Source: an archaeon (GTDB taxonomy: Archaea; Nanobdellota; Nanobdellia; Pacearchaeales; GW2011-AR1). From it: a DNA stretch of 64,000 nucleotides. Location of the stretch: the NCBI GenBank assembly GCA_027343665.1, contig DAHWKL010000002.1:109386-173385 (forward strand). The letters are read 5' to 3'. The position numbers were made by a program, and so were the translations under genes. The first letter of the stretch is position 1. Each line of letters starts with the position of its first letter. The notes beneath the pieces were generated by a model, which was not told the origin of the DNA, ran no database searches, and saw nothing but the letters and a program-made list of their open reading frames with translations. Positions 9,804-37,718 of the stretch are shown piece by piece.

Positions 9804-10670
9804 TTAAGGACTAGAGATTGTGGAATTATAACCATTATATAATGGGGCATTCCCTGCACTTTTCGCAGTCCCCCTTTTCTTCAAAAGAAGATATAAAACT
9901 GCTAAAAATATAACTAAAATACCAAAGACAATCATTCCGGAAGAAGATGCAACTATACCGATTATGATTAAGATTATACCCAGTATAAAAAATAAAGATT
10001 TTAACAAACCACCTTTGTTTCGGACAGCCTTTATCTTATTCCACTGTTCTGCACGTCGATCTTTCTTCCATTTTTTTAATGCTGCTCGCTTAGATTTAAA
10101 ATCCATCTGTTTATCAAGACTAAGCTCTTTGAAAGCTCTTCTCCTAAGTCCAAGATTGTGGATTATTAATGCAAGAATTATCAAAAATATCCCAAGAGTT
10201 AAGCCTGCACCTTGTTCATATATTATTCCTAGAAGCGAAATTCCAACAAAAAATATCCCTGCAAGAGCAAAAAAGGTTGCAATGAAATTCCTAAATCCAA
10301 ATTTCTTGAGAAGAAAAAGCGAAATAACAACCCCTACCATCCATAATATCGTCGGAAGTATGTCTGAACTTATACCCATGCTGTAAAGTAAATTTTCAAA
10401 TGAAAATCCTGTCGTGAAAATTCCATAAATTACAAATGAAGAAACACAAAGCGAGACTATAAACGAAACAGGTTTATTTCCATGAAAGATGCTTTTACCA
10501 AGAGCGAAATAAATTATTGCAAAAATTGCAACAAATAAGAGAGCATCAAGGTACATTCCGATATTAAGAGAAGAGAAAACTCCTCCGAAGTAAAAATCTC
10601 CAAAGCCCTGAGCAGAAACAAAGTTAAGTCCGATAATTAAAGGAAAAAATAAAGTCAGCCACTTTTTCAT
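9804..10670 (-). CDS. polytopic membrane protein, paralogue 1 (SAQGFGDFYFGG family)
   Basis: The track ORF starts at a TTG (10715). The ATG at 10670 (MKKWLTLFF) has a TATA-like box at 10692-10699, 25.5 nt upstream. About 50% identical by eye to the next gene over roughly 175 aa. It adds a basic cytosolic loop and two further TM helices. Confidence 0.65.
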   Translation of the reverse strand: MKKWLTLFFPLIIGLNFVSAQGFGDFYFGGVFSSLNIGMYLDALLFVAIFAIIYFALGKSIFHGNKPVSFIVSLCVSSFVIYGIFTTGFSFENLLYSMGISSDILPTILWMVGVVISLFLLKKFGFRNFIATFFALAGIFFVGISLLGIIYEQGAGLTLGIFLIILALIIHNLGLRRRAFKELSLDKQMDFKSKRAALKKWKKDRRAEQWNKIKAVRNKGGLLKSLFFILGIILIIIGIVASSSGMIVFGILVIFLAVLYLLLKKRGTAKSAGNAPLYNGYNSTISSP

Positions 10671-10723
10671 TTCAAAAATAAGTATTTCCGCCTTAAAAAC
10701 TTTCTCAGGAGCCAAGGCTTAAA

Positions 10724-11251
10724 TTAAGGGATAAATCTCCTTAAAATAAAAGATAGTATAAGCAAAATCCCCCCAATAACAATTCCAGCTCCTTGCTCGT
10801 ATATTATTCCTGTTAAAGAGAATATTATCAAAAGCAGACCTGAAAGAGCAACTAGCAGGGCGATGAAGTTCACAAATCCGAATTTTTGAATTAAGAAAAA
10901 AACTATCGCTACCCCAATTACCCAAAATATAATTGAAAGTAATCCTTGTGAAAGCCCAAGGCTATTTATAAGATTCTCAAGTGAAAAGCCGGTTGACAAT
11001 ACCCCATACATGACAAAAGACGAAACGGAAAATGAAACAACAAAACAGGTGCCTTCATTATCCTTGAGCTGACTTCTTTTAAGTGCAAAATGTACAAGGG
11101 CAAATACTCCGATAAAAAGCACAGCATCAAGGTACATTGAAAGATTGAAATATGAAAAAAGCCCCCCAAAATAAAAATCTCCGAATCCTTGCGCAGAAAC
11201 CATGTTGATATAAACTAAAAAAATAGTTAATAAAATTGGAATTTTTTTCAT
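10724..11251 (-). CDS. polytopic membrane protein, paralogue 2 (SAQGFGDFYFGG family)
   Basis: The ATG at 11251 (MKKIPILL) is supported by a TATA box at 11273-11280. Shares SAQGFGDFYFGG, YLDA(L/V)LF, GIIYEQGAG and other blocks with paralogue 1. Confidence 0.65.
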   Translation of the reverse strand: MKKIPILLTIFLVYINMVSAQGFGDFYFGGLFSYFNLSMYLDAVLFIGVFALVHFALKRSQLKDNEGTCFVVSFSVSSFVMYGVLSTGFSLENLINSLGLSQGLLSIIFWVIGVAIVFFLIQKFGFVNFIALLVALSGLLLIIFSLTGIIYEQGAGIVIGGILLILSFILRRFIP

Positions 11252-11272
11252 AAACACATCAAGATTATCTTT

Positions 11273-11280
11273 ATTATAAA
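11273..11280 (-). promoter_or_regulatory. TATA box for membrane paralogue 2 (leaderless)
   Basis: Minus-strand TTTATAAT centred 25.5 nt upstream of the ATG at 11251. Confidence 0.45.
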
Positions 11281-11294
11281 CATAACTAAAAAAA

Positions 11295-11675
11295 CTATTC
11301 ATACCTTTTCATCATCTCAATGAATATAAAAACAGATACAAACAGAACCCCGATAATTATAAGGGTTAAAGTGATTATATTTATCCCGGATCCGAGATAA
11401 TTCGAAATCATAAAATAACCTAAAACGATGAGCGGTATCAAGATTGCAAGAAATCTCCTGAACTCTGCCTTTTTCCTTTTTATAACACGCGGATGCTTTG
11501 GAATTTCAGCCTCTTTTATTTTCATGCCCTTTTTCTTTGATATTGAATATGAGGCAGATTCGTTATAGTTTTCAGCCTTATTTCTCTTTGACTTTCCTAA
11601 TAGCACCAAAAAAAGCAAAAATGCCATCATCTCAACAAAAGAAAGCTCTGCAAGTGCCGCAACTATAAAATCCAT
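11295..11675 (-). CDS. small membrane protein
   Basis: 126 aa. One N-terminal and two C-terminal hydrophobic helices flank a Lys/Arg-rich loop. Confidence 0.5.
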   Translation of the reverse strand: MDFIVAALAELSFVEMMAFLLFLVLLGKSKRNKAENYNESASYSISKKKGMKIKEAEIPKHPRVIKRKKAEFRRFLAILIPLIVLGYFMISNYLGSGINIITLTLIIIGVLFVSVFIFIEMMKRYE

Positions 11676-18216: not shown

Positions 18217-19428
18217 TCAAGCTGCCATTGTAAGGGTTGAGACACCCTCTTTTCTTAGGACTGCAACCGCTTTTTCCACAGAATCACGACCAAGGAAACA
18301 AGCGACAATCTTATCTTTAAGCTTTGATTCAATGATTTCATGAGCAACTTTGAGAGGACTTGAAACAACCTGCGGAGTCAAAACGGCAAGAACCGAATCA
18401 TAAGTTTTCTTTGATCTTTCAACATTTTTAAGAGCTCTGCGATAACTCACTTCATTAGCATCATCCTGAAGAATCTCAAAGTCTACTTCATATCCTTTGC
18501 TTGAAAGCTCATCGGATAATACTGCAGCTGCACCACCAGAGTTGGAAACCATAAAAATTCTTTTTCCTTTTAATGAATAGATTATATGCTCCTCACGCAG
18601 TCCGAAAGCTCTTATCAATGATTCACTTTCTGTTACACCAGCCTGCCTGAATGCTCCGGAATAAATCTTCTTGTCCGACGGCAGGCTTCCCGTATGCAAC
18701 ATGGTAACTTTCCTTCCGGTCTCAGTTTTTCCTGCATTGACAACATAGATTTTCTTCTTCGAAACTTTGCATAAATCTATGAATCTTTTGCCGTCATCAA
18801 GCCTTTCAATATAACAGATTATCTTTTTTGTTTTCTTGTCTTTCTCAAAATATTCAAGCCAGTCGCAAAATCCCAGATCCGACATATTTCCAAGGGATAC
18901 AAAAGCCCTGAGGCCAAATCCATTGTCAAGGATGTAATTTGCAAGACCTGCACTCTGGCTCAAAAAAACAGTATCACCTTTTTTAAAATTAGATGGGGAA
19001 AGCGTGAGATCTATATTTTTTTTGGGATTGATTATCCCCCCGGAATTCGGTCCGAGAATATTCATATTATATTTGTCTTTTAATCTCACAATTTTTCTCT
19101 CAAGTTTATCCCTCCCGGATTCTGAAAACCCTGATGAAACGATTGCAGCATTTTTTATTCCTTTTTTGAAACATTCTTTCAAAATCCCGGGAACTTTCCT
19201 TGCCGGAAGGCAGATTACAGCAAGGTCGATGTTTTTTTCGTAATCTTTGAGTCTTTTATAACACTTCTTGCCTTCAATACTCTCTTCATGAGTGTTTATC
19301 GGGATTCTCACGCCTTTCTGATTCCTGAGCTTTCTGAATATAGCATTTCCGATTTTCTCCCTGTTGCTAGATGCTCCTATAACAGCAATGGATTTCGCAT
19401 TGAAAAAAGAGTCCAGATTTTCTTTCAT
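18217..19428 (-). CDS. acdA: ADP-forming acetyl-CoA synthetase, alpha-type subunit (CoA-binding and CoA-ligase domains)
   Basis: The start was moved to the ATG at 19428 (MKENLDSFFNAKSIAVIGASSN), which is the canonical CoA-binding N-terminus. A succinyl-CoA-synthetase-like flavodoxin domain follows. Confidence 0.8.
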   Translation of the reverse strand: MKENLDSFFNAKSIAVIGASSNREKIGNAIFRKLRNQKGVRIPINTHEESIEGKKCYKRLKDYEKNIDLAVICLPARKVPGILKECFKKGIKNAAIVSSGFSESGRDKLERKIVRLKDKYNMNILGPNSGGIINPKKNIDLTLSPSNFKKGDTVFLSQSAGLANYILDNGFGLRAFVSLGNMSDLGFCDWLEYFEKDKKTKKIICYIERLDDGKRFIDLCKVSKKKIYVVNAGKTETGRKVTMLHTGSLPSDKKIYSGAFRQAGVTESESLIRAFGLREEHIIYSLKGKRIFMVSNSGGAAAVLSDELSSKGYEVDFEILQDDANEVSYRRALKNVERSKKTYDSVLAVLTPQVVSSPLKVAHEIIESKLKDKIVACFLGRDSVEKAVAVLRKEGVSTLTMAA

Positions 19429-19445
19429 CAAGGTATTTCGAAAGA

Positions 19446-19457
19446 TATATATAAATA
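19446..19457. promoter_or_regulatory. two overlapping divergent TATA boxes for acdA and acdB
   Basis: TATATATA (19446-19453) is centred 25.5 nt upstream of the ATG at 19475. TATTTATA on the minus strand (19450-19457) is centred 25.5 nt upstream of the ATG at 19428. The whole spacer is 46 bp. Confidence 0.5.
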
Positions 19458-19474
19458 AGTTTTGTTTAGCTTTT

Positions 19475-20065
19475 ATGGAAGTATTTTCAGAAGCAAAAGC
19501 CGAGGATTTTCTAGAAAAAGAAGGTTTTCCGGTAGTTGAAAGAGACCTTTCAAGAGGCATCGGTGAACTGAGAGAATCTATAAAAAAAGTCGGGACGCCA
19601 TTCATAATGAAAGTTTCAGGCGAAAGGATATTCAAAAAAAGGGCTGCCAGGGGGATAAAGACAGATATAAAGACTTATACTCAAGCAGTCATGGAATTCA
19701 AGGATTTGAAAAAAATAGAAAGATCAAACGGGGTCCTTGTGCAAAAGAAAATCTCAGGAAAAGAATTCATAGCCGGAATGAAAAAAGCGCCCGAATTCGG
19801 ACATTCGATATTTTTTGGGAATATAGAAGAGAATTTCGTATTCAGAATCGCGCCTTTTGAGAAAGAAGAGGCAGAAAAGATGATAAAAGAATCAGCAGCT
19901 TTCCTTCCTAAAAAAGATGATGATGCAATATCCCTTATACTTTTAAAACTCTCAGAACTTTCAGGAAAACATCCTGAGATAAATGACGCAAAAATAAGAT
20001 TCATGATTCAGGATGACGGGAACCCAAAGATCATAGATGCTGAGATTTCTTTTGATAAAAGTTAA
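19475..20065 (+). CDS. acdB: ADP-forming acetyl-CoA synthetase, beta-type subunit (ATP-grasp)
   Basis: The start was moved to the ATG at 19475 (MEVFSEAKAEDFLEKEGFPV). ATP-grasp-like pattern (PFIMKVSG.., VLVQKKISGKEFIAG). Divergent from acdA. Confidence 0.7.
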   Translation: MEVFSEAKAEDFLEKEGFPVVERDLSRGIGELRESIKKVGTPFIMKVSGERIFKKRAARGIKTDIKTYTQAVMEFKDLKKIERSNGVLVQKKISGKEFIAGMKKAPEFGHSIFFGNIEENFVFRIAPFEKEEAEKMIKESAAFLPKKDDDAISLILLKLSELSGKHPEINDAKIRFMIQDDGNPKIIDAEISFDKS

Positions 20066-20074
20066 TTTCAAAGG

Positions 20075-22063
20075 TCATTTAACGAGAACCATCTTGCCAA
20101 GTTCAGATTCAACCTTTGAATCCTTTTCTTTCTCTTCGAGTCTGTAAAGATAAACTCCTGAAGGGAATCCTGTCATGTCGACTTCGAATCTGTATTCGCC
20201 CGGAACCTTATATCCGCCTTCAATTGCTTTTACTTTTTGTCCAAGGATATTGTAAATATCAATCCCTACTTCTCCTGGCTTTGCCAAATCATACATTATC
20301 GTCGTTGTAGGATTGAAAGGGTTTGGATAATTCTGATATATCTGAAATTTCTTTGGAAGAAGAGGGTCTCTCTCATTCACAGCAGTCACATTTTCCACTT
20401 CTATAAGCTCGTCAGCTGAAGCCTTCAGCGTATCGCCATATGTGGTCACGAAATCCGTGAAAGTCCTTGTGAATGCGTAAGCTGTGGTTTTGTGAGTCTT
20501 ATCGGGGGATAATGTTGTATCTGCCCACACAGTATCATGATCGGTGTAATAAAGCCCCAAAGGAGCGGTTGTGTTCACTTTTGAAGTGTCAGGGAAAGCG
20601 TCAGGATATCCGTTTTGGAAAAGATATTGCGGAGTGAGAGCCTGACCTGAAGGGACTCTTCCTGCATCAACTACGAGAGTGTCAAGACTAGAACCATTTT
20701 TGTTTTTTATATCAACTTTCACAGCTGAACTTAAAATATTCCCATATTTCACATTTGTAGAAGCTGATGAATCCACTTTTGTGACTCCACCTGAAGTTAT
20801 CCATGTGTAAAATCTGTATGGAACAATCATGCTTGTGCTGTCAGCTGACCAGGTTGTGTCTCCCGTCACATAGGAAAGATTAGGAGGAAGTTTTGTGCTG
20901 TCAGCAGATATTGAAGGCACGACATTGAACCCAAGATTCTCAAGGCCCGAAAGGCTCATATCTGCTTTTGACGGAACTTTTGATCCGTCAACATCAACAC
21001 TGTCAGGCAATCCGCTTTCATGAACCCGAATGATATTTGGATTGTCCATAACAAAAGAATTTTCGGGATGATTTCGAGCATTATAATAACTAACCATTGT
21101 TCCTTCTCCATTCTTTAATTTAAATACAACGATTCCTGGCATATAACCAAAATACTTATTATGATTCTCTGCATCTTGAAGATAGGTATATTTCCCAATA
21201 AATACAGCCGAATCTGGATTCATATCATTACTACCTGGAGTAACATGATAAAGATAATAATTTCCGACAGTTCCCCCAATATAAAATGCATATATATTAG
21301 AAAAAGTCGTATCGGGTTTATCCACAAAAACTCCCGCAACAGCATGAGGACTTCCCCCAACATCATAATCATTCACTGTAAAAACGGGAATATTAAATCT
21401 TGCAGGAGTAACTTCACCACTTAAATCAATGCCTGTATTTTCTTTATACCAAGTTAGAAATGCACTTTGATTCGAGACACCATAAAAATCATCTTCATAT
21501 CTGGCTACAAAATTCTGGCAAAGCCAATCTTTAGTATCCCCTGCAGTAGGATAACCTGGGGGCATTGCAGATTCAATTTTCATCATTTTCTCAAGCCAAG
21601 AAACTCTCTCAGCCCTTGTGGTCAAAGAGTCCCAATATCCTGGAAGATAAGGTATTGTGTGATTTAGGTACTCTTGAATCAAATCTGCATCAGATTGGTT
21701 GACAACGCCATCGCCGTTTACATCTGCTCTGTCAAGATCCTGTGGGGGGACATTTCCGGATTCAATAATCTTGACATCTGTTGAATCAACTTTCCCGTCA
21801 TCATTTACATCTCCTGAGCCATACCAATCAAGAGGCCCTCTTCCAAGTTGTACTTGTATATTTGGCTGTGAATAAGGATTCATGAGTACTGGCCATGGCG
21901 TAGGACCATTGACAGTCATCTGAGGAATTGCAGTTGAGGGAGCAGGCCCGATTATCGGATTGCTGTCAAGAAACTGCTGCGCTTTTGCTTTTATAGGCAT
22001 AAGCGTTGCTAACGCGATAGCGCCGACCCCGAGATATTTAGCTAAACCTCTTAACTTTTTCAT
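20075..22063 (-). CDS. secreted dockerin-repeat protein with T9SS/FlgD-Ig-type C-terminal domain
   Basis: 662 aa with a signal peptide (..PIKAKAQQ). Two Ca-binding dockerin loops, DVNDDGKVDSTD and DVNGDGVVNQSD (nt 21668-21814). The last 95 aa (nt 20075-20362), QNYPNPFNPTTTIMYDL..IDIYNILGQKV..SGVYLYRLE, match the Por/T9SS C-terminal sorting-domain pattern. Confidence 0.8.
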   Translation of the reverse strand: MKKLRGLAKYLGVGAIALATLMPIKAKAQQFLDSNPIIGPAPSTAIPQMTVNGPTPWPVLMNPYSQPNIQVQLGRGPLDWYGSGDVNDDGKVDSTDVKIIESGNVPPQDLDRADVNGDGVVNQSDADLIQEYLNHTIPYLPGYWDSLTTRAERVSWLEKMMKIESAMPPGYPTAGDTKDWLCQNFVARYEDDFYGVSNQSAFLTWYKENTGIDLSGEVTPARFNIPVFTVNDYDVGGSPHAVAGVFVDKPDTTFSNIYAFYIGGTVGNYYLYHVTPGSNDMNPDSAVFIGKYTYLQDAENHNKYFGYMPGIVVFKLKNGEGTMVSYYNARNHPENSFVMDNPNIIRVHESGLPDSVDVDGSKVPSKADMSLSGLENLGFNVVPSISADSTKLPPNLSYVTGDTTWSADSTSMIVPYRFYTWITSGGVTKVDSSASTNVKYGNILSSAVKVDIKNKNGSSLDTLVVDAGRVPSGQALTPQYLFQNGYPDAFPDTSKVNTTAPLGLYYTDHDTVWADTTLSPDKTHKTTAYAFTRTFTDFVTTYGDTLKASADELIEVENVTAVNERDPLLPKKFQIYQNYPNPFNPTTTIMYDLAKPGEVGIDIYNILGQKVKAIEGGYKVPGEYRFEVDMTGFPSGVYLYRLEEKEKDSKVESELGKMVLVK

Positions 22064-22084
22064 ATTGTTACTACTGTTTAGTTA

Positions 22085-22092
22085 TTTATAAA
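22085..22092 (-). promoter_or_regulatory. TATA box for the dockerin/CTD gene (leaderless)
   Basis: Palindromic TTTATAAA centred 25.5 nt upstream of the ATG at 22063. Confidence 0.5.
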
Positions 22093-22203
22093 CTTTTTGC
22101 CTTAACGATTTTTATATTTGATTATATTTAAGATAAAGGAGATATAAATTTTATGGATTTTGTAACCCGATAAAAAATGCTTTTATGCATTTTTAGAAAC
22201 TTT

Positions 22204-25098
22204 TTACCTTCTCTTCGTAGTTTTTCTTCTAATGGCAAAAGTCTTCTTTCTTTTGGCTTTTACCTCAAACAAAATATAAAGAACAAAGATTATCAAAACA
22301 GCGACGATTGCATTCTGCCAATCAAAGAAACTCAGCTGAACCTGAGCGGGGCAAGGTATAACCGCGCTTCCGCTTTCACATGAGAATCCATTTGGAAGAC
22401 AGTGATAAGAGGTTGTACCATATAATCCGCAGATTCCATTGCTACAAACTCCGTTGCAATTAGCATTTGTGTAAGTATTATTATCCCAGACAATCTGAGC
22501 AGTCCATGAGGAATTTATCAGCTGACTGTTAGAGCAATCTTCACTCACAGGATTTTGAGTTATCTGGCATGAGACTCCTGTTCCTTGTGCAGCACTTCCG
22601 CCTGAAGTTCCAAGACCGCAAGCGCCAGCAGCACTATTCCACGAGCAAAAAGCATTCACTCCTGCAGGAGGATTTGAACCATAATCAACAAGATATGTGG
22701 CAAGTGAAACATTGCATCCGCCTACTCCATTCACATCTGCATTGCACCAGCTTTGCGCATTTGATAGTCCTACATTTGTTGAGGTATAATCAGTGCAGAA
22801 GCTTACAGAAGCACATTGCGACTTATTGACGGGTGCTGGAGAGCATTGCCCTCCACAACTGGAATCAGCATAGCAGCCATTTCCGACAGAATTACATGAA
22901 GGATCAACTTCACACAATCCGCCACCGCTTCCACTACAAGAATAATATGTTTGTGCTGAGCTTGTCACACTCAGCGTCGGGCTCGTATAACTTCCCAGTA
23001 CAAAAAAGAAATTGTATGTCCCGCTGTTTGAGGTTACCGCAGGATTATTCAAAACATTGCTGTTAAGAGTCCATGTATTGCTGCTCACAGTGTCAGAACC
23101 GCTCACTCCGCCTGAGAATGTTCCTAAGTTAACATTGTTATAAAAAGAGCAGGCAAGGAATCCACAGGAATAATTCTTTTCATAAAGGGTGAAAGTTCCG
23201 CCAGAAGCATAATTCTGAGCATAAAGGTATAAGGGTATTCCACTTGAAACAGAAGAGCTTGAATAAGAAGATTGTGATGGAGTTCCTGAACCATCAATTG
23301 CAAAATACAAACTTGGCGGAACGCAGGCAGAGCCGTCCCAGGTATATCCAGAGTTACACAGATAACATTGCTGTCCTACAGTTGAGCAATAATAGGATGC
23401 ATTATTATAAGCATTTGTAGGATTTGAGGGATTTCCGACATAACCACAAAAACCCGTATAAACTGTACCTTTTTGGGCGAGAGGACACTCAGGGAGGCAC
23501 ACTGTTCCGTTGTAAGTAAATCCAGGGTTACAGAAATAACAACTTTGGCTTGAGGGGCATAAATAGGAAGAATTGAGTTGCGCATTTTGAATAGGTGAAG
23601 AAGAACATCCCGCATTTCCTGTTCCGATAGTAGCAGAAGGACATGAAGTTCCGCAAGAAGTTGTAGAAGCTACTGCTGTAGCACTTAACGGACCACATGC
23701 ATTATTTGATCCCCCACATGCCTGAGCTTGATAACTATAAGTTGTCCCGCAATTCAACCCAGTATTATAATAAGATGCACCAGAAGGAACCGTTTTTATT
23801 AATGTGCCATTCCTGAAAACATTATAACTAGTAGCCCCCGAAACTTGTTGCACTGAGACATATATTGATGTTTGATAGGGAGTTAAACTCGGAGCGAGAA
23901 GACTGCATGCTCCAAGACCCCCTGCAACTGAAGAGCATCCATTACTACAGATATAACCCGAATTAGTGCCCAAAGTGCCTCCCCCGAATGTACCACTACT
24001 GCAATAATATTCCGTTAATTCAATCCTTGTAGAACATTGATCCGGATAGGGTGAATTTGTAGAAACCCCAGTCATATAACCTTGAGGACTTACCTGGTAA
24101 GTTGTCAGCGTTGCAGTTCCTGGGATATATGGATAATTCCCGTCCGTATCAGAGCACAAAGAAGTTGGAAGGCATTGATAATTGTAAGTCTGATTCACAT
24201 CATAACACCCTTGACTTGAATAAGCGGAACATTGACTTTGGGTAAATCCATAGCAACTCGTATTATATGAATATGTAGATTGAGGGTTCCATGTGCAACC
24301 TGCCGTATTCATACATGTAGTCTTGTCAAGACCCCCGCAGGTATTAGTAGCTAAAGGAGTATAACTGTTGGGAACATTTGGATTACTAGATAATGTACCT
24401 GTAGGTGTTCCCGTACAGTAAGCAGGGACGATTGAAGTCGTGACATACTGACCTCCGCAATAAGAGAACGTTGGGCTTGTTTGATTTAAAGCTGTTCCCG
24501 AAGGACATAAACAGGAATATTGAGGAGTACACCCAGAAGTGGATCTGCACGAAGTTTCATCCGGTATGCTACTGCATGAAGAAGATGAACTAGGTAACCA
24601 TGTACAATATGGCTGGTTTGACAAACATTGTGAAGAATCATAGGAATAACAATAAATACCATTAGCTATTGCAGCGGATTTGCAAGTCACATTGCCGCAC
24701 ATCGCATTTGCAAAATCACAACTACCGCTGTATGAAGTCCATGAACAAGGATTTGTAGTTCTCGAAGTGCAACCGATAGGGCAATTTGGACTCATGAAAG
24801 ATGAGCAAGGTTCATTGCCTGTTGTTGTCGTGGTTCCACCACAAGTGTCATAATAAGAAGCAGTACATTGAGATTGACTCAAGCCACTGCAAAAATTGGA
24901 ATCATAAGTGCTACCAGTATAACTTGAGCTTAGTGTACAAGAGGAACCTGTATAATATCCGCTACAACCAAGATAACTGACAGTCTGACCTTGGGTACAC
25001 GTCGTCGCGGAGACATTTTTCGCCATTGAAACGACTGATAAAAATAGGAAGAATGCTAATAACAGAAATAAACTAAACAATTTCACACTCTTTTTCAT
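22204..25098 (-). CDS. giant Cys/Ser/Thr/Gly/Tyr-rich surface protein with C-terminal TM anchor
   Basis: 964 aa. Signal peptide, about 74 Cys by hand count, and almost no Lys/Arg/Glu outside the termini. One FN3-like module (SGATSYNVFRNG..GTTYSYQAQA). Tandem EGF/furin-like repeats of the form Y(L/Y)C..Q(S/Q)CY(F/L)CN(P/S)G(F/Y)T(Y/W)(N/D)G..C(L/V)P. C-terminal TM helix plus a KAKRKK..RRKTTKRR tail. Confidence 0.8.
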   Translation of the reverse strand: MKKSVKLFSLFLLLAFFLFLSVVSMAKNVSATTCTQGQTVSYLGCSGYYTGSSCTLSSSYTGSTYDSNFCSGLSQSQCTASYYDTCGGTTTTTGNEPCSSFMSPNCPIGCTSRTTNPCSWTSYSGSCDFANAMCGNVTCKSAAIANGIYCYSYDSSQCLSNQPYCTWLPSSSSSCSSIPDETSCRSTSGCTPQYSCLCPSGTALNQTSPTFSYCGGQYVTTSIVPAYCTGTPTGTLSSNPNVPNSYTPLATNTCGGLDKTTCMNTAGCTWNPQSTYSYNTSCYGFTQSQCSAYSSQGCYDVNQTYNYQCLPTSLCSDTDGNYPYIPGTATLTTYQVSPQGYMTGVSTNSPYPDQCSTRIELTEYYCSSGTFGGGTLGTNSGYICSNGCSSVAGGLGACSLLAPSLTPYQTSIYVSVQQVSGATSYNVFRNGTLIKTVPSGASYYNTGLNCGTTYSYQAQACGGSNNACGPLSATAVASTTSCGTSCPSATIGTGNAGCSSSPIQNAQLNSSYLCPSSQSCYFCNPGFTYNGTVCLPECPLAQKGTVYTGFCGYVGNPSNPTNAYNNASYYCSTVGQQCYLCNSGYTWDGSACVPPSLYFAIDGSGTPSQSSYSSSSVSSGIPLYLYAQNYASGGTFTLYEKNYSCGFLACSFYNNVNLGTFSGGVSGSDTVSSNTWTLNSNVLNNPAVTSNSGTYNFFFVLGSYTSPTLSVTSSAQTYYSCSGSGGGLCEVDPSCNSVGNGCYADSSCGGQCSPAPVNKSQCASVSFCTDYTSTNVGLSNAQSWCNADVNGVGGCNVSLATYLVDYGSNPPAGVNAFCSWNSAAGACGLGTSGGSAAQGTGVSCQITQNPVSEDCSNSQLINSSWTAQIVWDNNTYTNANCNGVCSNGICGLYGTTSYHCLPNGFSCESGSAVIPCPAQVQLSFFDWQNAIVAVLIIFVLYILFEVKAKRKKTFAIRRKTTKRR

Positions 25099-25120
25099 TT
25101 AACAGATTAAATCATCGGCT

Positions 25121-25128
25121 TTTATAAA
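25121..25128 (-). promoter_or_regulatory. TATA box for the Cys-rich surface protein gene (leaderless)
   Basis: TTTATAAA centred 26.5 nt upstream of the ATG at 25098. Confidence 0.5.
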
Positions 25129-25228
25129 TATTTTGTTGATAAGAGCTTTGTTTAATAAGTAGTTTTTGTTTAAAATTTCATTAAAAGATATATGAAAGAT
25201 TTTTATAGCTTTATCAGTTAAAAATTGC

Positions 25229-26137
25229 GTGAAAGCAAAAAAGACATTGACTTCCTTTTTGAGTTCTGCAATGATATTGACATTGACAGAAAGAGCAATT
25301 GCGCAAAATAAAGCTAATACTCTAGACATAGGAAAAAATCCGCACCAGACAGAACAGATTCTTGGCTTGAATGATGATTTCAAGATGGATTACAGTACCA
25401 AGGTGTCTGTTCCAATCCTGCCGGCTGGAAGGAGCACGGCAATATGGGAGAGTGAATCATGTGATTCTATTCCGAGCATGAAAGAAAATCATAGTGTCAT
25501 GAAAGTTCTCAATGGGGAAGCGACGCTTGTTATACCAATATTCTTCCTTAAGAATGTGAAAGTCCAATACAGGACATACGTTGACAGCCTCGGAAGGCCA
25601 ATTGAAAGCATGCTTGTCGATTATAACTGCTCCCAGCATGAATTTTCACATCTTGACAGCACAATAATAAAAGAAGAATTCCCGGAAAGATGGAAAGACA
25701 TAAGAGGCTTTTACAGAGACCAGTTCAATTATAAAGAAGGTATCATCACTGACAGCCACGGGAAAGAACATCCGCTGGATTCATCATTCACAGACGTGCA
25801 GACAACTTATTTTTCCGTATGCAATATGATAAAAGATGCTCAATCCGGAAAGATTCAAATGCCTTTTGACACGACACTCAATATTTTTGATGATTCTGTA
25901 GCGTACAAATTCCGTCTAAAGGCAGAGAATGGTGAAAAGAAAGATAGTAATTATATAAAAGCTTCAGCAAGATTGGAAAGTTTAAGCGGAGGAAAACCTT
26001 CATTCATTATGAAGAGCATAGATAATATCACTTTCTTCATAAACAAGAAAAATTATATTCCAGAACGCATAAAAGTTAATCTGTTCTCAGGAGCAGCATC
26101 CGCAGACATCAGATTAAAAAGCTATGAAATAAAATAA
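25229..26137 (+). CDS. secreted hypothetical protein
   Basis: 302 aa with a GTG start and a signal-peptide-like N-terminus (..ILTLTERAIAQ). A TATA-like TTTTATAG at 25201-25208 lies 24.5 nt upstream. No recognisable domain. Confidence 0.55.
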   Translation: MKAKKTLTSFLSSAMILTLTERAIAQNKANTLDIGKNPHQTEQILGLNDDFKMDYSTKVSVPILPAGRSTAIWESESCDSIPSMKENHSVMKVLNGEATLVIPIFFLKNVKVQYRTYVDSLGRPIESMLVDYNCSQHEFSHLDSTIIKEEFPERWKDIRGFYRDQFNYKEGIITDSHGKEHPLDSSFTDVQTTYFSVCNMIKDAQSGKIQMPFDTTLNIFDDSVAYKFRLKAENGEKKDSNYIKASARLESLSGGKPSFIMKSIDNITFFINKKNYIPERIKVNLFSGAASADIRLKSYEIK

Positions 26138-28803: not shown

Positions 28804-29223
28804 TCAATGACAGGATAGTTTGACCTTTCGTGGAGAATAATAAGTCGAGTTTGAAAAGACCAGTATCTCTGAAGAATAAACGTCCCCGGCAATATTACTG
28901 TAAATTGGACAATTGTCCTCAAAAGAGCATATGCCCATTTCGCATGAATATCCCAAAAATGAATTATTATCTAGATAATATGAGATGTCAGGAGGAAAAC
29001 TCGTATTATCTGAATATGAAGGCAGCTTAGCTGAAAGCACAGAATTTCGCAAGGTGCTGTTTGTTTCCACGGCGTTCAAAATATTTGTTATACTGTTTTC
29101 GACCCCGACACTGTTTACTTCAGATGCATTGTGATTCCCGATTATAATCATCAAAAACCCCAAGAGGAAGATAAGTGACATGAAAGCTTCTATTATTTTT
29201 ATCCATCCTTTTTTATTCACCAT
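28804..29223 (-). CDS. type IV pilin-like protein (class III signal peptide)
   Basis: 139 aa. MVNKKG/WIKIIEAFMSLIFLLGFLMII: a short basic leader ending in KKG, then a hydrophobic helix. Confidence 0.6.
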   Translation of the reverse strand: MVNKKGWIKIIEAFMSLIFLLGFLMIIIGNHNASEVNSVGVENSITNILNAVETNSTLRNSVLSAKLPSYSDNTSFPPDISYYLDNNSFLGYSCEMGICSFEDNCPIYSNIAGDVYSSEILVFSNSTYYSPRKVKLSCH

Positions 29224-29900
29224 ATCTTCACCCCGAATGTCCCTGTTTCATAAGACCCGTTAAATGAGAGATAGTTTAGTTCAATTGATCCTGCATAGAC
29301 ATTTGTCTCCGGAGTTGGGACACCACCACCTATGATGGTCCCGTTTTTATATTTAAATTCTATATCCATGTCCATGCCGGATGGGACCCCCAGAGCATTT
29401 TTCGTCACATCATAATTCTGGGAAAAGTTTGAAATGAGAGAGATTATATTTTCCTGAAGAACCATTTCCTCTTTCACTTCACTGTCGGGAGAGATAAAGA
29501 TACACCCTGAGCCTGAGAAAGGTTTGCTGTTAACTATTTTGTTTGAATAAAATATTTTTATAAATCCTGTCCCATTAAATGAGACATTCTTGCCGTTCAC
29601 TTGCGAATAAACCGGACCAGAATTACCAATCCCTTCTGATTGACCTCCTGCAATTAATTCGGGGAGGGTGGATTCAAAACACGTCGGACTGCTCGTATTA
29701 TAAAATCTGAGTACCCAAACTTCAGAGGAGACAGAGCTGATTATATTTCCTTCAACAGTTCCAAGGGAATTTTTAGCATTATTTGGATTAATGATTAATG
29801 AAGTCACTAGAAAATATATGAACATGAGCGCGGTTATGAAGAGGGTAAAAGATATTATCATATCCATCTGTGATCCTTTTTTGTTAGATTGGGTTTTCAT
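29217..29900 (-). CDS. type IV pilin-like protein (class III signal peptide)
   Basis: 227 aa. ..SNKKG/SQMDMIISFTLFITALMFIYFLV. Its start overlaps the upstream platform gene by 4 nt. Confidence 0.55.
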   Translation of the reverse strand: MKTQSNKKGSQMDMIISFTLFITALMFIYFLVTSLIINPNNAKNSLGTVEGNIISSVSSEVWVLRFYNTSSPTCFESTLPELIAGGQSEGIGNSGPVYSQVNGKNVSFNGTGFIKIFYSNKIVNSKPFSGSGCIFISPDSEVKEEMVLQENIISLISNFSQNYDVTKNALGVPSGMDMDIEFKYKNGTIIGGGVPTPETNVYAGSIELNYLSFNGSYETGTFGVKIW

Positions 29901-30742
29901 TTTCCGAAGAGAAGATTGGCCAAAGTTGAGACGATAAAGGATATAATCATAAGTGAGAAAGAGTGTTTAACTCCTGCTTTGAAATTACCTTCAGAAAGCT
30001 TTCCGATGGTAATGCCGGTAAAAAAACCCTGAACAAGTATAAGGTAAAGGAATGCGTCTGAGATTTCGGCCTGACTAGTTGACGGATTAACTGGTGTTAT
30101 TCCGGTACCTATTCCAAGAGTTCCCCCAACATTCCCAATTCCGGACACCATGGGAATTATCTGAAATTGAAGGACAAGAATTATGACGATAAAAACAAGG
30201 AATATTATGTATCCTTGGCTCACAAGCGAGGATATTGTTGATTTTCTTTCTTTCTTCAGTCTATCAGTCATGCTTACGGCATTTGCAACCGCATCAAGTA
30301 TACCCCCTATATCACCTCCGGATCTTTCCGCTTGACCAATAAGAATTAAAGACCTAGAGATTGTACTATTGTTCACATCTTTTGAAAAAACATCAAGCGC
30401 TACATTCAAAGAGATCCCAAGAGAAATTTGATTAGCAAGTTTTTTTATGTGAGGGGTAAGATGTCCATAATTTTTATCGGCCATTATCATTATGCTCTTG
30501 CTTATTGGTGTTCCGGTCTTTACGCTTTCAACAAGATTTCTGGCGAATTCCAGGAACATTGCTTCTTTCTCTTGTGAAACTTTGTTTTCATAAAGTATTC
30601 TTATGACAATAGGCAAAGAGCCGAATATAACCGCCAAACCTGCAATAAGAGGGAATATTTTTGCGGGAAGAAGGAATCTGCCTGCCGCTAGCACAGCAAC
30701 AGCTATTCCAACCCCAATTATATCTTTGTCTTTAAGTTCCAT
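29897..30742 (-). CDS. pilus platform protein, TadC/FlaJ-like (T2SS-F domain), second half
   Basis: 281 aa. N-terminal TM pair, a cytoplasmic helical T2SSF-like domain, and C-terminal TM helices. Confidence 0.7.
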   Translation of the reverse strand: MELKDKDIIGVGIAVAVLAAGRFLLPAKIFPLIAGLAVIFGSLPIVIRILYENKVSQEKEAMFLEFARNLVESVKTGTPISKSIMIMADKNYGHLTPHIKKLANQISLGISLNVALDVFSKDVNNSTISRSLILIGQAERSGGDIGGILDAVANAVSMTDRLKKERKSTISSLVSQGYIIFLVFIVIILVLQFQIIPMVSGIGNVGGTLGIGTGITPVNPSTSQAEISDAFLYLILVQGFFTGITIGKLSEGNFKAGVKHSFSLMIISFIVSTLANLLFGK

Positions 30743-32058
30743 TATTTATTCCCCTTCATTTGTAAAAATGCAAGAAATATAATATTAACAACAGAGACAA
30801 CAAGACTTATCACAAAAGATATTGACAGAAAACTCATTGAAACCCCAAGACCACTTATTTTCATTATTATCAAAAGGAGCATAAGGATCATTGGAGCAGC
30901 AATCAAAGTGCTGATGTAGATATCCATAAAAGTCTCAGCGGATCTTGATGCTTTTTCCTGAGCAATTTTGTAGTTGAACAAAAGCGTTTGGGACCTTTCA
31001 TCAAAAAATTCAGCGAGATCGCCCCCGGAAGTTATCGTCGTGGCAAGGCCTGTCAAAAGCTCTGAAAGCTCTTTGCTAGGGCTGTTTTTTGCGGTGTTCT
31101 TCAGTGCGCTAACAAGATCATAACCATACAAATTTATTTCATTTATCATTTTAATGAACTCTTTTTTCAGGGCTGGATATTCATTTGTCATTATGAGTAT
31201 CTCGAAAATTCTGACTGGATCCATCATTGATCCGGATATTGCAGACATGCTTATCGTCGCGAAAGGAAGTTCGGCGTTTATAGCACCAGATGCACTCTCT
31301 TTCTCAAGAGTTGGATAAACATACATGAAAGCAAAAGTGGCTACTGGGCCAACAATTAATATCCAAAAAGTTTCAAAAAAACGCACGTTTATGGGCTGAG
31401 TAGCTCTGGATATTATCGGAAGAGTCGCGGAGAAATTGAAGAAAAGAAAAAAGAGAAATATGAATCCTGAAATGAATATAGAAAGAAAAGTGGTCATGAG
31501 AATTATAGATACATATCCTACAGGGGTATAATTTAAATTTGCCTTTAAGAGTTCATCTTCCATCTTAGCAAAAGAATTTTTGGATAAGAGTTTCAGTGAA
31601 ACTTTGGAAAAAAATCTTGATGAAACCTTTGTGTAATATGATGAATCTTTCTTCTTTTTTTTCAACTCTTCTTCTTTTTCTTTTTGCTTCTTCTTTTTTA
31701 TTCTCTTGACAGTTTCATTCTCAAGCTCATCAGGGAGTATTTCCTTGAGAGAGAATATTTTTCCTCCTTTTGTCATCAGTTTAGAATCAGAATCAGGTCT
31801 AAGGGAATCTTTATCAAGTTCTTTTTCTATCTGCGTCGGATCCAAAAGTTTCTCAAAAAGGATTCGGTCAAAAAAAACTTTAAACTCGGAGAGGACATCC
31901 TTGAATTTCTTTTCAAGACTTTTCATATGAGAGTCAAATATTCTCTTCTCAGAATCACTTTTTGACATATCACGGAATTTTGAAGTTTTTTCGACTTCAG
32001 CAAAAGCTATTTTGACTTTTTCAATAGATTCAAGAGATTGCCTGTATTCTTCTATCAT
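30742..32058 (-). CDS. pilus platform protein, TadB/FlaJ-like (T2SS-F domain), first half with coiled-coil N-extension
   Basis: 438 aa. About 170 aa of K/E-rich soluble N-terminus, then TM helices, a T2SSF-like cytoplasmic domain and more TM helices. Confidence 0.7.
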   Translation of the reverse strand: MIEEYRQSLESIEKVKIAFAEVEKTSKFRDMSKSDSEKRIFDSHMKSLEKKFKDVLSEFKVFFDRILFEKLLDPTQIEKELDKDSLRPDSDSKLMTKGGKIFSLKEILPDELENETVKRIKKKKQKEKEEELKKKKKDSSYYTKVSSRFFSKVSLKLLSKNSFAKMEDELLKANLNYTPVGYVSIILMTTFLSIFISGFIFLFFLFFNFSATLPIISRATQPINVRFFETFWILIVGPVATFAFMYVYPTLEKESASGAINAELPFATISMSAISGSMMDPVRIFEILIMTNEYPALKKEFIKMINEINLYGYDLVSALKNTAKNSPSKELSELLTGLATTITSGGDLAEFFDERSQTLLFNYKIAQEKASRSAETFMDIYISTLIAAPMILMLLLIIMKISGLGVSMSFLSISFVISLVVSVVNIIFLAFLQMKGNK

Positions 32059-32243
32059 TTCTTTGCTTTACCCACATTACTGTTTAATATGTCTTCAATT
32101 TTTTTCACAGAATCGAGAATGCTTCTCTTACTCTGATTAAATCCTTCTTCGTCACCAGATTTCATAACACCTTTCATCTTTTTCAGATTATCATCGATAG
32201 ATGCAATCAGGCCTTTCACAGAAATTACTTCTTCATTTTCCAT
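32055..32243 (-). CDS. small coiled-coil protein in the pilus operon
   Basis: 62 aa, charged and helical. Overlaps the next gene by 4 nt and starts 5 nt after the ATPase stop. Confidence 0.45.
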   Translation of the reverse strand: MENEEVISVKGLIASIDDNLKKMKGVMKSGDEEGFNQSKRSILDSVKKIEDILNSNVGKAKK

Positions 32244-32248
32244 TTTGT

Positions 32249-33802
32249 TTAGTTCACCCCGAATTTTGCAAGAACTTCCTGGGGCTTTTTGTAATACTCA
32301 TTTATTACATCCTGGACTTCCCTAAAACCAAAAACTTTCTTCTGATAAAGCCTATAAAGAAGCTCTGCCCTTCTCCTGAATTCGACTGAAAGAGCCTCTG
32401 GTGTTATGCCATACCTGTGGTATATCTTCTGGAAAAGACGGCTTTCTTTTTTAAAATAAAATTTATCGTCGGCAGAGTCCCATACGAAGGGGGTATTTGT
32501 GAGAGCTACATCATTTTCTCCTATATTTACCACTTCAACAATTTCACGAAGTTTTCTTGTCTCCTGATTTTTTACTATTGCATGGGTCATGACACACATG
32601 CTATCAAGAACATTCAATAAAGTTGGGGAAAGCTCAATGGGAGGCGTTTCAAGTCTCTTGATAACAGTTTCTATGGAATCAGCGTGAATTGTTGAGATAG
32701 AAGAGTGTCCCGAAGCCATACCCTGAAACAGAACAGAAGCCTCTTTACCTCTCACTTCACCTACAATAACATAATCCGGATTCTGCCTGAATGAAGCTCT
32801 TAAAAGTTCAAACATGTCAATTTCCCCCAGGCCCTTTGTCCCCGTAGCTGAACGAGCGACACTTGGAAGCCAGTTATCTCTCGGAAGGTTAAGTTCACGT
32901 GTATCTTCAATCGAAACAACCCTTGCTTCAGGAGGGATAAAAAAAGCTATTGCATTTAGGAGTGTTGTCTTGCCCGATGCCGTTCCTCCGACAATCAAAA
33001 GGTTCATTTTGTATTGGACTAAAAGCCACATGTAAGCGAGCATCTCCGGACTAAGAGTGTTGAAAGAGATAAGCTGAGGAGGGGTCCAAGGAGTCTTTGT
33101 GAATTTACGTATTGTAAAAGTCGGGCCTTTCGAAGTTACATCTTTTGTATAAGTGGCATTCACCCTTGACCCATCTGGCAAACTCCCATCGAGGATTGGC
33201 TCTGCGTAAGATATGTATTTACCACATCTTTGCGCAAGTTTTTCGACAAAACTTTCAAGAGATTCATTGTCTTTGAATATGAGATTAGTTTTCAGATTTC
33301 TGAAAATTCTATGGACAAGATAAACAGGAGTATTTGCACCATTACATTCTATATCTTCAACAAAATAATCACGGAGGAGAGGCTCGACTTCATTAAACCC
33401 CATAAAGTCTCTCACAAGATAATAATATATTTTTTTGTAGCTTTCGTAGGTAAGTTCTATACCCATCTCTATTGCAAGAAGCTTGAATCTCTTGTCTATA
33501 TATTCAAAAAGAGTCTCATTGCTTCCGCCGATAATCTCCTTGAAATTTATCATACTCCTCATAGCTTTCACCACTTTGTCCCTTGCAGTTTCCTCTTCAT
33601 CTGTTAGTATTGGCTCTTCTATTTCATAGATAACCTCATATTCTTTAGGATCCCAGTAGATATGGACATACGCAAAGGGGGAAATCAGACAATACCTTAT
33701 ATCAATTTTTGTTTTATCATCTATCTTTTTTATGGGGGGGATCCTGGGCGTGAAATCAACAGACACCATCGGATAATCAAGTATTCCAATTTTCTTGGGC
33801 AT
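32249..33802 (-). CDS. type IV pilus/archaellum-type secretion ATPase (FlaI/TadA/GspE superfamily)
   Basis: 517 aa. Walker A GGTASGKTTLLNA, Asp box VSIEDTRE, Walker B DYVIVGEVRG and His box SGHSSISTIHA. Confidence 0.9.
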   Translation of the reverse strand: MPKKIGILDYPMVSVDFTPRIPPIKKIDDKTKIDIRYCLISPFAYVHIYWDPKEYEVIYEIEEPILTDEEETARDKVVKAMRSMINFKEIIGGSNETLFEYIDKRFKLLAIEMGIELTYESYKKIYYYLVRDFMGFNEVEPLLRDYFVEDIECNGANTPVYLVHRIFRNLKTNLIFKDNESLESFVEKLAQRCGKYISYAEPILDGSLPDGSRVNATYTKDVTSKGPTFTIRKFTKTPWTPPQLISFNTLSPEMLAYMWLLVQYKMNLLIVGGTASGKTTLLNAIAFFIPPEARVVSIEDTRELNLPRDNWLPSVARSATGTKGLGEIDMFELLRASFRQNPDYVIVGEVRGKEASVLFQGMASGHSSISTIHADSIETVIKRLETPPIELSPTLLNVLDSMCVMTHAIVKNQETRKLREIVEVVNIGENDVALTNTPFVWDSADDKFYFKKESRLFQKIYHRYGITPEALSVEFRRRAELLYRLYQKKVFGFREVQDVINEYYKKPQEVLAKFGVN

Positions 33803-37091: not shown

Positions 37092-37112
37092 CGTATGAAC
37101 GCTTTTTCATTT

Positions 37113-37718
37113 ATGACATATACATTGCCCCCATTAGGTTATTCTTATGATGCACTTGAGCCCTATATAGACAAAGAGACGATGGAAGTTCATTACTCAA
37201 AACACCATCAGGGCTATGTGAACAAATTGAATGCAGCCGTAGAAAAAGAAAAAAAGATATCTGAAATGTCTGTTGAAGATCTTTTAAAAAACCTGAAGAA
37301 AATTCCGGCAAAGATAAGACAAGCTATCATAAACAACGGAGGCGGAGTTTACAATCACTCTTTTTTCTGGCCAATATTGAAAAAAAATGTCGAAGCGAAA
37401 GGCGAAATAGTTGATGAGATGAACAGAACTTTTGGCTCATTCGAAGAATTCAAAAAGCAGTTTTCGGATGCTGCAGCAACACTTTTCGGGAGCGGATGGG
37501 CATGGCTCGTCTTGAAAGACGGAAAACTTGAGATTGTGCAGACGCATAATCAGGAATCACCTATTTCATCAGGACTTGTCCCCTTGATAGGAATTGATGT
37601 TTGGGAACATGCATATTACCTAAAATATCAGAACAGAAGACCGGAATATATTGAAAACTTTTTCCATATAATCAATTGGGAAAAAGTGAACGAACTCTTT
37701 CTTGAAGCTAAGAAATAA
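37113..37718 (+). CDS. sod: Fe/Mn superoxide dismutase
   Basis: LPPLGYSYDALEPYID..HYSKHH, WEHAYYL and DVWEHAYY metal-ligand motifs. The track ORF begins 18 nt further upstream, at 37095. Confidence 0.92.
   Translation: MTYTLPPLGYSYDALEPYIDKETMEVHYSKHHQGYVNKLNAAVEKEKKISEMSVEDLLKNLKKIPAKIRQAIINNGGGVYNHSFFWPILKKNVEAKGEIVDEMNRTFGSFEEFKKQFSDAAATLFGSGWAWLVLKDGKLEIVQTHNQESPISSGLVPLIGIDVWEHAYYLKYQNRRPEYIENFFHIINWEKVNELFLEAKK

Follow-up and report, generated by a model that had tools for sequence, protein, structure and literature searches.

A cysteine-rich, membrane-anchored protein of a DPANN-like archaeon belongs to an unnamed family with a conserved C-terminal anchor and differs between strains in its central region

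Background

Modular, cysteine-rich surface proteins of type I topology with a variable head are a kind of molecule already known from other organisms, and in this work we analyzed an archaeal gene whose product may be compared with them. The gene is an open reading frame (ORF) at positions 22204-25098, on the minus strand of a 64-kb stretch of contig DAHWKL010000002.1 (hereafter the window; all positions are those of the whole stretch), that starts with ATG and encodes a protein of 964 amino acids (aa). The variant-specific surface proteins (VSPs) of Giardia, which offer an analogy, are likewise Cys-rich type I membrane proteins with motifs of the CxxC-G-[FY] type, and they combine a variable ectodomain with a conserved C-terminal transmembrane (TM) helix and a short basic tail, the variation falling mostly in the exposed part. 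The likeness does not extend to sequence, in which no relation is detectable (the Pfam VSP model gives no match at E ≤ 10). In addition, Giardia has a large, expression-switched repertoire, whereas here there is one syntenic locus with a cassette that differs between strains; the conserved part has about 38 residues there and a 200-aa extracellular module here, and the host of the gene is an archaeon.

Another analogy might be drawn with SlaB and SlaA of the Sulfolobales, where the gene for a Ser/Thr-rich stalk with a C-terminal TM anchor lies beside the gene for an unanchored secreted partner. SlaB is coiled-coil-rich and Cys-poor. There is no match of sequence or fold between the two systems, the gene order is inverted here with respect to slaA-slaB, and the head is hypervariable here. 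A conserved short motif, a TM helix and a basic cluster also make up the known sorting signals (PGF-CTERM, which goes with archaeosortase A, PEP-CTERM, LPXTG, Heimdall-CTERM and GG_III-CTERM); nonetheless, the motif that precedes the TM helix here, CPAQ(V/I)QLxFFxWxN, is another one. The NCBIfam sorting-signal models, PEF-CTERM among them, gave no match on the full-length protein, and on the TM stretch all the scores were below threshold (Heimdall-CTERM 14.3 vs 24, GG_III-CTERM 13.2 vs 22, LPXTG 12.7 vs 15.9); no sortase-like gene was seen in the window. Short CxxC...G-[FY]...C modules with Cys spaced 3-15 residues apart recall the EGF, furin-like and GCC2_GCC3 repeats, and FN3 modules form arrays in bacterial and archaeal surface proteins, whereas here a single copy with 3 Cys lies between Cys modules.

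To our knowledge, how DPANN archaea of the Woesearchaeales and Pacearchaeales type recognise and hold other cells is essentially unknown, and few of them have been cultured. Here we describe the architecture, the family and the strain variation of the 964-aa protein, and weigh the reading, which we consider moderately probable, that it serves at the cell surface in recognition or adhesion, a conserved stalk carrying an exchangeable head.

Results

Architecture of the protein and its conserved anchor

The ORF is a genuine gene. The topology of its product and the membership of the product in a family are near certain. The features of the gene, from the N-terminal to the C-terminal end of the protein, are the following:

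25006..25098, minus strand: signal peptide (aa 1-31, MKKSVKLFSLFLLLAFFLFLSVVSMA/KNVSA), a basic N-terminus and then a hydrophobic core; AF2 helix at aa 4-24; 88% identity with the homologue P0002
24163..25005, minus strand: N-terminal Cys-rich region (aa 32-312, 30 Cys) with loose C-x7-C-x5-7-C-x-W motifs and low AF2 confidence
23899..24162, minus strand: 'CSDTDG' module (aa 313-400, 6 Cys), from a BLASTP alignment to modules of P0009
23656..23898, minus strand: FN3-like module (aa 401-481, 3 Cys); phmmer matches to FN3 arrays span aa ~400-510
23317..23655, minus strand: two furin/VSP-like mini-modules, CxxC-N-x-G-[FY]-T-[YW]-[ND]-G-x2-C (aa 482-594, 13 Cys)
22951..23316, minus strand: Ig-like beta-sandwich (aa 595-716; AF2 pLDDT 75-93, 8-9 strands)
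22324..22950, minus strand: membrane-proximal Cys-rich module that defines the family (aa 717-925, 20 Cys), ending in the juxtamembrane PCPAQVQLSFFDWQN
22258..22323, minus strand: TM helix (aa 926-947; placed by AF2 at aa 927-949), hydrophobic and conserved, including a Tyr that is invariant in alignment A1
22207..22257, minus strand: poly-basic cytoplasmic tail (aa 948-964, 10 K/R in 17 residues), KAKRKKTFAIRRKTTKRR
23233..24732, minus strand: strain-variable cassette (aa ~123-622), the central 1.5 kb without blastn similarity to the sister strain

Judged by its sequence, the protein is not an orphan; it is a member of an unnamed family that has no Pfam or NCBIfam model. The whole protein matched nothing in Pfam, NCBIfam or the PDB sequences, and Pfam run on six sub-segments at E ≤ 10 returned only EGF_3 (E = 0.17) and RGI_lyase (E = 0.037). 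A word-indexed search retrieved one full-length homologue, P0002 (949 aa, 45% identity), two partial ones (P0006 and P0009), and none for aa 32-401 alone. An exhaustive HMMER search gave 474 matches of two classes: FN3 arrays, which match aa 400-510, and some 35 clusters (50% identity) that match aa ~650-963, with phmmer E-values over this C-terminal stretch from 1e-10 to 1e-42. The loci of the family number 73, 12 in GTDB genomes and 61 in metagenomes of JGI; no member was found in viral contigs, and no close allele of the gene in the JGI metagenomes. The members are named only 'hypothetical protein' or 'DUF4215 domain-containing protein' in the databases; most have no Pfam match, and single members carry sporadic head domains (fn3, NHL propeller, Dicty_CTDC, DUF4215). 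No literature specific to Cys-rich surface proteins of DPANN or Woesearchaeota was found; the family, its C-terminal module, the CPAQVQL motif and the conserved gene pairing described below are undescribed in the libraries and literature searched.

The hallmark of the family is a Cys-rich module of about 200 aa followed by CPAQ(V/I)QLxFFxWxN, a TM helix in which one Tyr is invariant, and a poly-K/R tail that is present in all members. Alignment A1, made of 25 C-termini of the family, has 9 invariant Cys plus conserved W, Y, G and N, and its consensus reads C..N.C.DY.....CN.D.C.VA..TPP.AG.G....C.W......C....G..IGSC.....D.C.DGFLSYSW...W.W...N....H.DP......C..GS.TIPCPAQ(V/I)QLSFFDW.N. The 964-aa protein carries every invariant column, and it shares with the family the C-terminal module, the juxtamembrane motif with TM helix and tail, the signal peptide with an even number of Cys, and, with its orthologous subgroup, the genomic position. 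A profile search of the word-indexed database with A1 returned 2 proteins only and is uninformative. In the AF2 model the module at aa 717-925 has a pLDDT of about 70-87 (mean 73 when modelled alone), and CPAQ(V/I)QLxFFxWxN is predicted to be the last strand of the folded module; Foldseek found no fold match for it at E ≤ 0.001 in PDB or BFVD (best E 0.6 and 0.4). Foldseek with the full-length model or the preceding sandwich, within which the family has the consensus W...YEFYF, gave only generic Ig-like sandwiches (E = 5e-3 to 5e-2).

Two family members occur within one genome or contig in two cases (L014/L016 and L045/L060). In a metagenome-assembled genome labelled 'archaeon' (L008:5772-8720), the orthologue is present as two ORFs of 373 aa (P0073) and 585 aa (P0042), for which a frameshift, a pseudogene or an assembly error are possible.

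The 'CSDTDG' module has no Pfam match and occurs in 1-5 copies in other members, as counted with C-x-D-[ST]-D-[GN]. An earlier model-generated note on this DNA (the original prediction) had proposed an FN3-like module, and this proposal is borne out by the phmmer matches and by 43-45% identity (E = 5e-11) to two FN3 repeats of P0003, with the common motif SY.(V/I).RNG...Y.DTGL...T.Y.Y; the Pfam fn3 model does not match the protein at E ≤ 10, although the homology to Pfam-annotated FN3 arrays is clear, and AF2 builds only three strands here (aa 412-438, pLDDT 65-74). The same note had described a Cys repeat in two copies, which are indeed present as CYFCNPGFTYNGTVC at aa 520 and CYLCNSGYTWDGSAC at aa 578, but the x4 spacer that it gave fits the second copy only, the first having x3. 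The CxxC-N-x-G-[FY] motif is also found in P0002 (three times), P0021, P0036, P0132 and P0009. The resemblance of these repeats to knots of EGF or furin type, pointed out in the same note, does not amount to membership of those families: EGF_3 reached 12.5 bits against a cut-off of 28.5, and neither Furin-like nor GCC2_GCC3 matched at E ≤ 10. A strict C-x2-h-x3-6-C-x3-8-C-x-W motif was also tried as a repeat of the N-terminal region; it was observed 2 times against 0.67 in shuffled sequences, which is no enrichment, and it is not claimed.

Cysteine parity, charge and base composition

The protein has exactly 74 Cys (7.7%), in agreement with the even, approximate hand count of the original prediction, and all of them lie between residues 34 and 916, which leaves signal peptide, TM helix and tail free of Cys. 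The number of Cys is even in each of the 25 distinct full-length members with a signal peptide, which stand for 42 sequences in all and in which it ranges from 20 to 86 (72 in P0002), and odd counts are confined to fragments or to sequences with a doubtful start; with random parity this would occur by chance with a probability of about 3e-8. The even parity, together with the exclusively extracytoplasmic location, argues strongly, if indirectly, for the intramolecular pairing of all Cys, and the ectodomain would thus contain about 37 intramolecular disulfides. In the region where the protein and P0002 are divergent and only 28% of the other residues are identical, 29 of 42 Cys can still be aligned, a proportion that is an upper bound because the aligner itself favours Cys-Cys matches.

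Together, S (16.1%), T (11.0%), G (10.2%), N (7.7%) and Y (7.2%) account for 52% of the residues. The protein has 56 Asp, Glu, Lys and Arg residues (DEKR), 17 of which are in the signal peptide, the TM flank or the tail, and the ectodomain (aa 32-925, 894 residues) contains D20, E9, K6, R4 and H1, that is, 4.4% charged residues. In the 49 other long ORFs of the window Cys amounts to 0.59% and DEKR to 29%, and the binomial probability of 74 or more Cys relative to these ORFs is 5e-56; the neighbouring secreted proteins, with 20-26% DEKR, show a moderate depletion of charge only. The description of the protein as secreted, almost free of charge and anchored by a C-terminal TM helix with a poly-basic tail was therefore accurate, and its description as unusual for archaea was so in part. 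Cys-rich relatives are common in this DPANN clade; near-zero charge is rare, since D+E amounts to 10-19% in most members and to 3-6% in the 964-aa protein, P0002, P0015, P0036 and P0132. High Cys content is hence typical of the family as a whole, and near-zero charge is restricted to a few lineages. The scarcity of charge in the ectodomain could reflect heavy glycosylation or an adaptation to the water chemistry of mine drainage; the ectodomain has 14 N-x-S/T sequons, for an estimated 19 or so predicted from composition.

The gene was also noted to be richer in GC than its surroundings, as it is (42.0% vs 36.8% for the whole window). GC at the second codon position is raised (GC2 0.58) and at the third it is 0.30, within the 0.23-0.38 of the neighbours, and because only GC2 is raised the excess is an effect of the amino acids encoded (Ser, Thr, Cys, Gly and Ala codons). 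A foreign origin of the gene was considered and rejected, given that GC3 equals that of the genome. A repeat search over the window found no direct, inverted or tandem DNA repeats and no low-complexity tandem arrays beneath the ORF.

Replacement of a central cassette between strains

The gene was compared with the syntenic loci of sister strains, L001 (from ENA) and L018 (from Logan). In blastn, positions 26599-24733 align at 90% and 23232-22201 at 83%, and nothing aligns between them. The encoded proteins are about 80% identical over aa 1-100 and about 90% over aa 620-945; over aa 100-600 identity drops to 10-45% and there are large indels, and the frame remains intact in the sister strain through the fully divergent, indel-bearing centre. 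The Nei-Gojobori estimates of synonymous (dS) and nonsynonymous (dN) divergence from the sister strain are as follows for the gene and its neighbours, p302 and p662 being the flanking 302-aa and 662-aa proteins:

RtcB: dS 0.28, dN 0.029
p302: dS 0.20, dN 0.022
964-aa protein, aa 620-945: dS 0.42, dN 0.093
964-aa protein, aa 100-600: dS 1.5 or more (saturated), dN 0.44-0.97
p662, N-terminal part: dS 0.45, dN 0.19

In the alignable parts of the 964-aa gene dN/dS is 0.2-0.4. Because the synonymous sites are saturated as well, the cassette is an old divergent allele that arrived by recombination or replacement, and not the product of recent point mutation. The replacement of the central part is as expected of an exposed recognition protein, and the hypervariability between strains that had been suggested as a check was thus found. 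The contigs of two other sequencing runs show the same gap at 23317-24778, and a contig of run X1 matches the whole region identically.

Contigs of run X2 that match the window identically break off at 23533 and restart at 24728, near the cassette boundaries, at a depth of 3-8x; two coexisting cassette alleles may have split the assembly, a suggestion that comes from contigs only. At the sister-strain locus L018, a 5.2-kb island (L018:4762-9892) separates the 302-aa gene from the start of the Cys-rich gene (window ~25135-25168), with a 34-nt overlap at the joint; it carries genes for a DDE_Tnp_1 transposase, DUF1828/1829, DUF6978, an N6_N4 methyltransferase and a restriction enzyme of the MvaI/BcnI type. 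The cassette was also considered as the target of a diversity-generating retroelement and this was rejected: in the 64-kb window no repeat involves the ORF, and the change is a replacement of the whole cassette with indels, not an adenine-specific substitution.

Genomic neighbourhood

The features that flank the gene are listed below; the promoter-like and terminator-like elements were read from the DNA sequence.

20075..22063, minus strand: downstream partner gene; its 662-aa secreted product has a signal peptide, then a type I dockerin at aa 84-134 and, C-terminally, a Por_Secre_tail/FlgD-Ig-like beta-sandwich at aa 579-648
25229..26137, plus strand: divergent gene whose 302-aa secreted product matches DUF3108 weakly, under the Pfam cut-off (E = 8.5e-5)
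25120..25128, minus strand: TATA-like box TTTATAAAA, putative archaeal promoter, 22-30 nt upstream of the ATG
22083-22092, minus strand: putative TATA-like box of the 662-aa gene
22172..22194, minus strand: hairpin AAAAATGC/GCATTTTT and then a T-run, terminator-like, directly past the stop of the 964-aa gene

In many relatives (L002-L009, L018-L020, L022-L028, L036) the gene order is T2SSE, T2SSF, T2SSF, a p227-like gene, sometimes an archease and a proteasome-like gene, RtcB, the Cys-rich gene and the Por_Secre_tail gene. The pairing on one strand with the gene for the protein with the dockerin and the C-terminal domain (CTD), pointed out in the original prediction, is conserved, since the synteny of RtcB, the Cys-rich gene and the p662-like gene is found in at least 20 related loci; this RtcB-flanked context is missing from more distant members of the family. 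Across these loci identity to the window amounts to 55-86% for the housekeeping neighbours and to about 30-35% for the Cys-rich protein, in its C-terminal third only. In closer relatives the Cys-rich gene is apparently single-copy and has a fixed place among housekeeping genes. The 302-aa gene had been counted as a third secreted orphan of a surface island; by tblastn it was detected, apart from the window, in L001 and L018 alone, and because it is confined to the closest strains it falls outside the conserved unit.

The 662-aa protein has no TM helix and 1 Cys. Its dockerin scores 42 bits against the Pfam threshold of 22.9 and is also above threshold in L018, and in distant orthologues it is weak (L002, E = 0.06) or not detected (L003). 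Its CTD reaches 34.6 bits vs 27 in Pfam and 31.8 vs 23 with TIGR04183. The type IX secretion system (T9SS) is a bacterial system, and none of its components was seen in the window; the CTD is probably a plain Ig-like module here. A TTTATAAA-type box precedes the ATG by 22-31 nt in both same-strand genes, and the position of the putative TATA box suggests that the mRNA of the 964-aa gene has a short leader or is leaderless. With a TATA-like box for each of the two genes, and with the hairpin and the T-run in between, transcription as a single operon is not evident.

Upstream of RtcB, at 29217-33802 on the minus strand, lie the genes of a T2SSE ATPase, two T2SSF proteins and a 227-aa protein, an assembly set like that of a type IV pilus or an archaellum; in many relatives it has the same position relative to the Cys-rich gene. 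At three loci of more distant relatives (L002:14505-17153, L003:8528-11173, L008:10875-13520) the Por_Secre_tail gene is followed by a gene for a third secreted protein, of about 880 aa and with a PKD domain, and then by those for a GTPase, OapB and OapC. This block is absent from the window, which instead has, at 18217-20065, convergent genes for two subunits of an ADP-forming acyl-CoA synthetase, CoA-binding/ligase on the minus strand and ATP-grasp_5 on the plus strand; the TTG starts listed for these ORFs are probably too far upstream, because the ORFs overlap by 272 nt.

Other observations concern the rest of the window. At 9804-11302 (minus strand) two adjacent ORFs of 303 and 192 aa, without Pfam match and with 14.9% and 8.9% DEKR, share a 126-nt segment at 71% identity (10500-10625 and 11081-11206), and they may encode paralogous small secreted or pilin-like proteins. 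A direct repeat of 111 nt with 70% identity and a spacing of 273 nt (39992-40375), inside a 193-aa ORF (39872-40453), appears to indicate an internal repeat of that protein. A gene for a GmrSD-type restriction endonuclease (61108-63282, plus strand) lies in the part of the window with the lowest GC (0.30-0.31, GC3 0.23), which is likely an acquired defence island.

Organism and environment

The window carries genes for CDC48, a family B DNA polymerase, MCM, an ATP-dependent ligase, RFC, FEN1, RtcB and FtsZ, and this set identifies it as archaeal. The 12 loci with relatives in GTDB genomes are labelled Nanoarchaeota, Woesearchaeota, Pacearchaeota or plain 'archaeon', and the named members of the clusters are Pacearchaeota or Nanoarchaeota, so that the affiliation with a DPANN-like archaeon, already proposed from the DNA, is supported by the gene set and the relatives. 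The sequence of the window is present at 100% in a run described as 'mine drainage metagenome'. A gene for a Fe/Mn superoxide dismutase (37095-37718, plus strand) suggests that the cell meets oxygen, which is relevant to the formation of extracellular disulfides.

Discussion

The reading that we favour, with somewhat better than even confidence, is that the 964-aa protein is a surface protein for recognition or adhesion, in which an exchangeable head is carried on a conserved stalk. The grounds are the exchange of the head as a cassette between strains, together with the export signal, the TM helix, the positive-inside tail, the even number of Cys on the outside, the modular head, the evolution faster than that of the neighbours and the conserved secreted partner gene. 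In a DPANN archaeon related to Woesearchaeales and Pacearchaeales, the signal peptide would export the protein with type I topology, the single TM helix and the poly-basic cytoplasmic tail would hold it in the membrane, and about 37 disulfides would stiffen the ectodomain. The stalk and anchor would comprise the Ig-like sandwich, the module of about 200 aa, CPAQ(V/I)QLxFFxWxN, the TM helix and the tail, and the variable membrane-distal head the CSDxDG modules, the FN3-like module and the CxxC-G-[FY] mini-modules. Such a head might bind a host cell, a particle or a polymer, and it would be equally exposed to viruses; the stalk may in addition retain the neighbouring dockerin/CTD protein at the surface. 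Surface exposure and any contact with the 662-aa partner are inferred, and a binding function is about as probable as its absence. Going further, the membrane-proximal module with its CPAQ(V/I)QLxFFxWxN-TM-poly-basic end might be a new archaeal device for anchoring or docking, of a fold unseen in PDB and perhaps with a new sorting signal, that holds the dockerin/CTD partner, while the disulfide-knotted head decides which host or partner cell attaches and the exchange of cassettes sets the host range; we regard this extended version as unlikely.

Several points weigh against a role in recognition or adhesion. The protein has no known binding partner, and the AF2 pLDDT is below 50 over most of the head, mini-modules included. 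The saturated dS of the cassette is a sign of allele replacement and not proof of positive selection. In DPANN genomes, which are small, a conserved gene order does not have to reflect a functional link to the neighbour, whose dockerin is left without explanation, for a cohesin in the 964-aa protein is absent by Pfam at E ≤ 10 and by Foldseek on the confidently modelled sandwich. Episymbiosis is assumed from the clade. As for expression, the contigs of three metatranscriptome runs of the same study cover nothing of the 8-kb region, RtcB included, and are uninformative.

The main rival, which we hold to be possible but rather improbable, is a two-component envelope analogous to an S-layer, in which the 964-aa protein, as the anchored stalk in the role of SlaB, and the 662-aa secreted partner, in the role of SlaA, form the main surface layer. 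That an anchored protein and a secreted one without anchor are encoded side by side in at least 20 loci fits this, as does the fixed position, apparently in single copy in closer relatives, among housekeeping genes; nonetheless, two members of the family are present in some genomes or contigs. The S/T/N-rich ectodomain of low charge with its 14 sequons resembles glycosylated envelope proteins of archaea, but the sequons do not exceed the estimate from composition. Foldseek gave a weak match (E = 0.014) to the Ig domain of the Haloferax S-layer protein 7ptp, which is however a generic Ig-like match and one among many, and neither Pfam nor NCBIfam gave a match to an S-layer family. Moreover, a lattice protein is not expected to tolerate the replacement of half of its ectodomain between close strains, or head modules specific to lineages. 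Variation driven by viruses, with the protein as a virus receptor or decoy whose head is replaced to escape adsorption and adhesion as a secondary role, would agree with the cassette replacement at saturated dS, with the island of an insertion sequence and restriction-modification genes immediately upstream of the gene in L018, and with the GmrSD gene elsewhere in the window. No virus has been linked to the protein, though, the family is absent from viral contigs and there is no fold similarity to viral proteins; we think this reading quite improbable, and it is compatible with a recognition or adhesion protein rather than an alternative to it.

A scaffold like that of a cellulosome, in which a membrane-bound scaffoldin binds the dockerin of the neighbour and organises the degradation of extracellular polymers, was suggested by the above-threshold type I dockerin here and in L018. 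The idea of a cohesin was dropped because Foldseek gave only generic Ig-like matches, the dockerin fades in the distant orthologues of the neighbour, and a glycoside hydrolase domain is seen in neither protein with Pfam or NCBIfam, all of which makes a scaffold very improbable. Finally, an artefact of low complexity or of assembly, with no gene at all, could invoke the apparently split orthologue in L008 and the failure to find RNA evidence. It is effectively refuted by an open frame of 2.9 kb that is also open in the sister strain across the divergent centre, by the dN/dS of 0.2-0.4, by homologues in 73 further loci (12 + 61), by the lack of DNA repeat content, by the even Cys throughout the family and by the identical X1 contig.

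Conclusions

Even if the 964-aa protein were only a structural component of the envelope, it would still define an unannotated family for Pfam and NCBIfam, to which dozens of 'hypothetical proteins' could be assigned. The strict even parity of Cys in 25 members is a clear example of abundant disulfide bonding outside the cell in archaea whose genomes are tiny, and it raises the question of which oxidoreductase forms the bonds. The locus offers a concrete candidate for cell recognition in DPANN archaea that can be tracked by genome position, with one gene per genome in the closer relatives. Its conserved anchor can be found by profile or by the CPAQVQL motif, and the head, which differs between strains, could be tested in metagenomes for correlation with the hosts that occur alongside, produced for binding assays and labelled in cryo-electron tomography.

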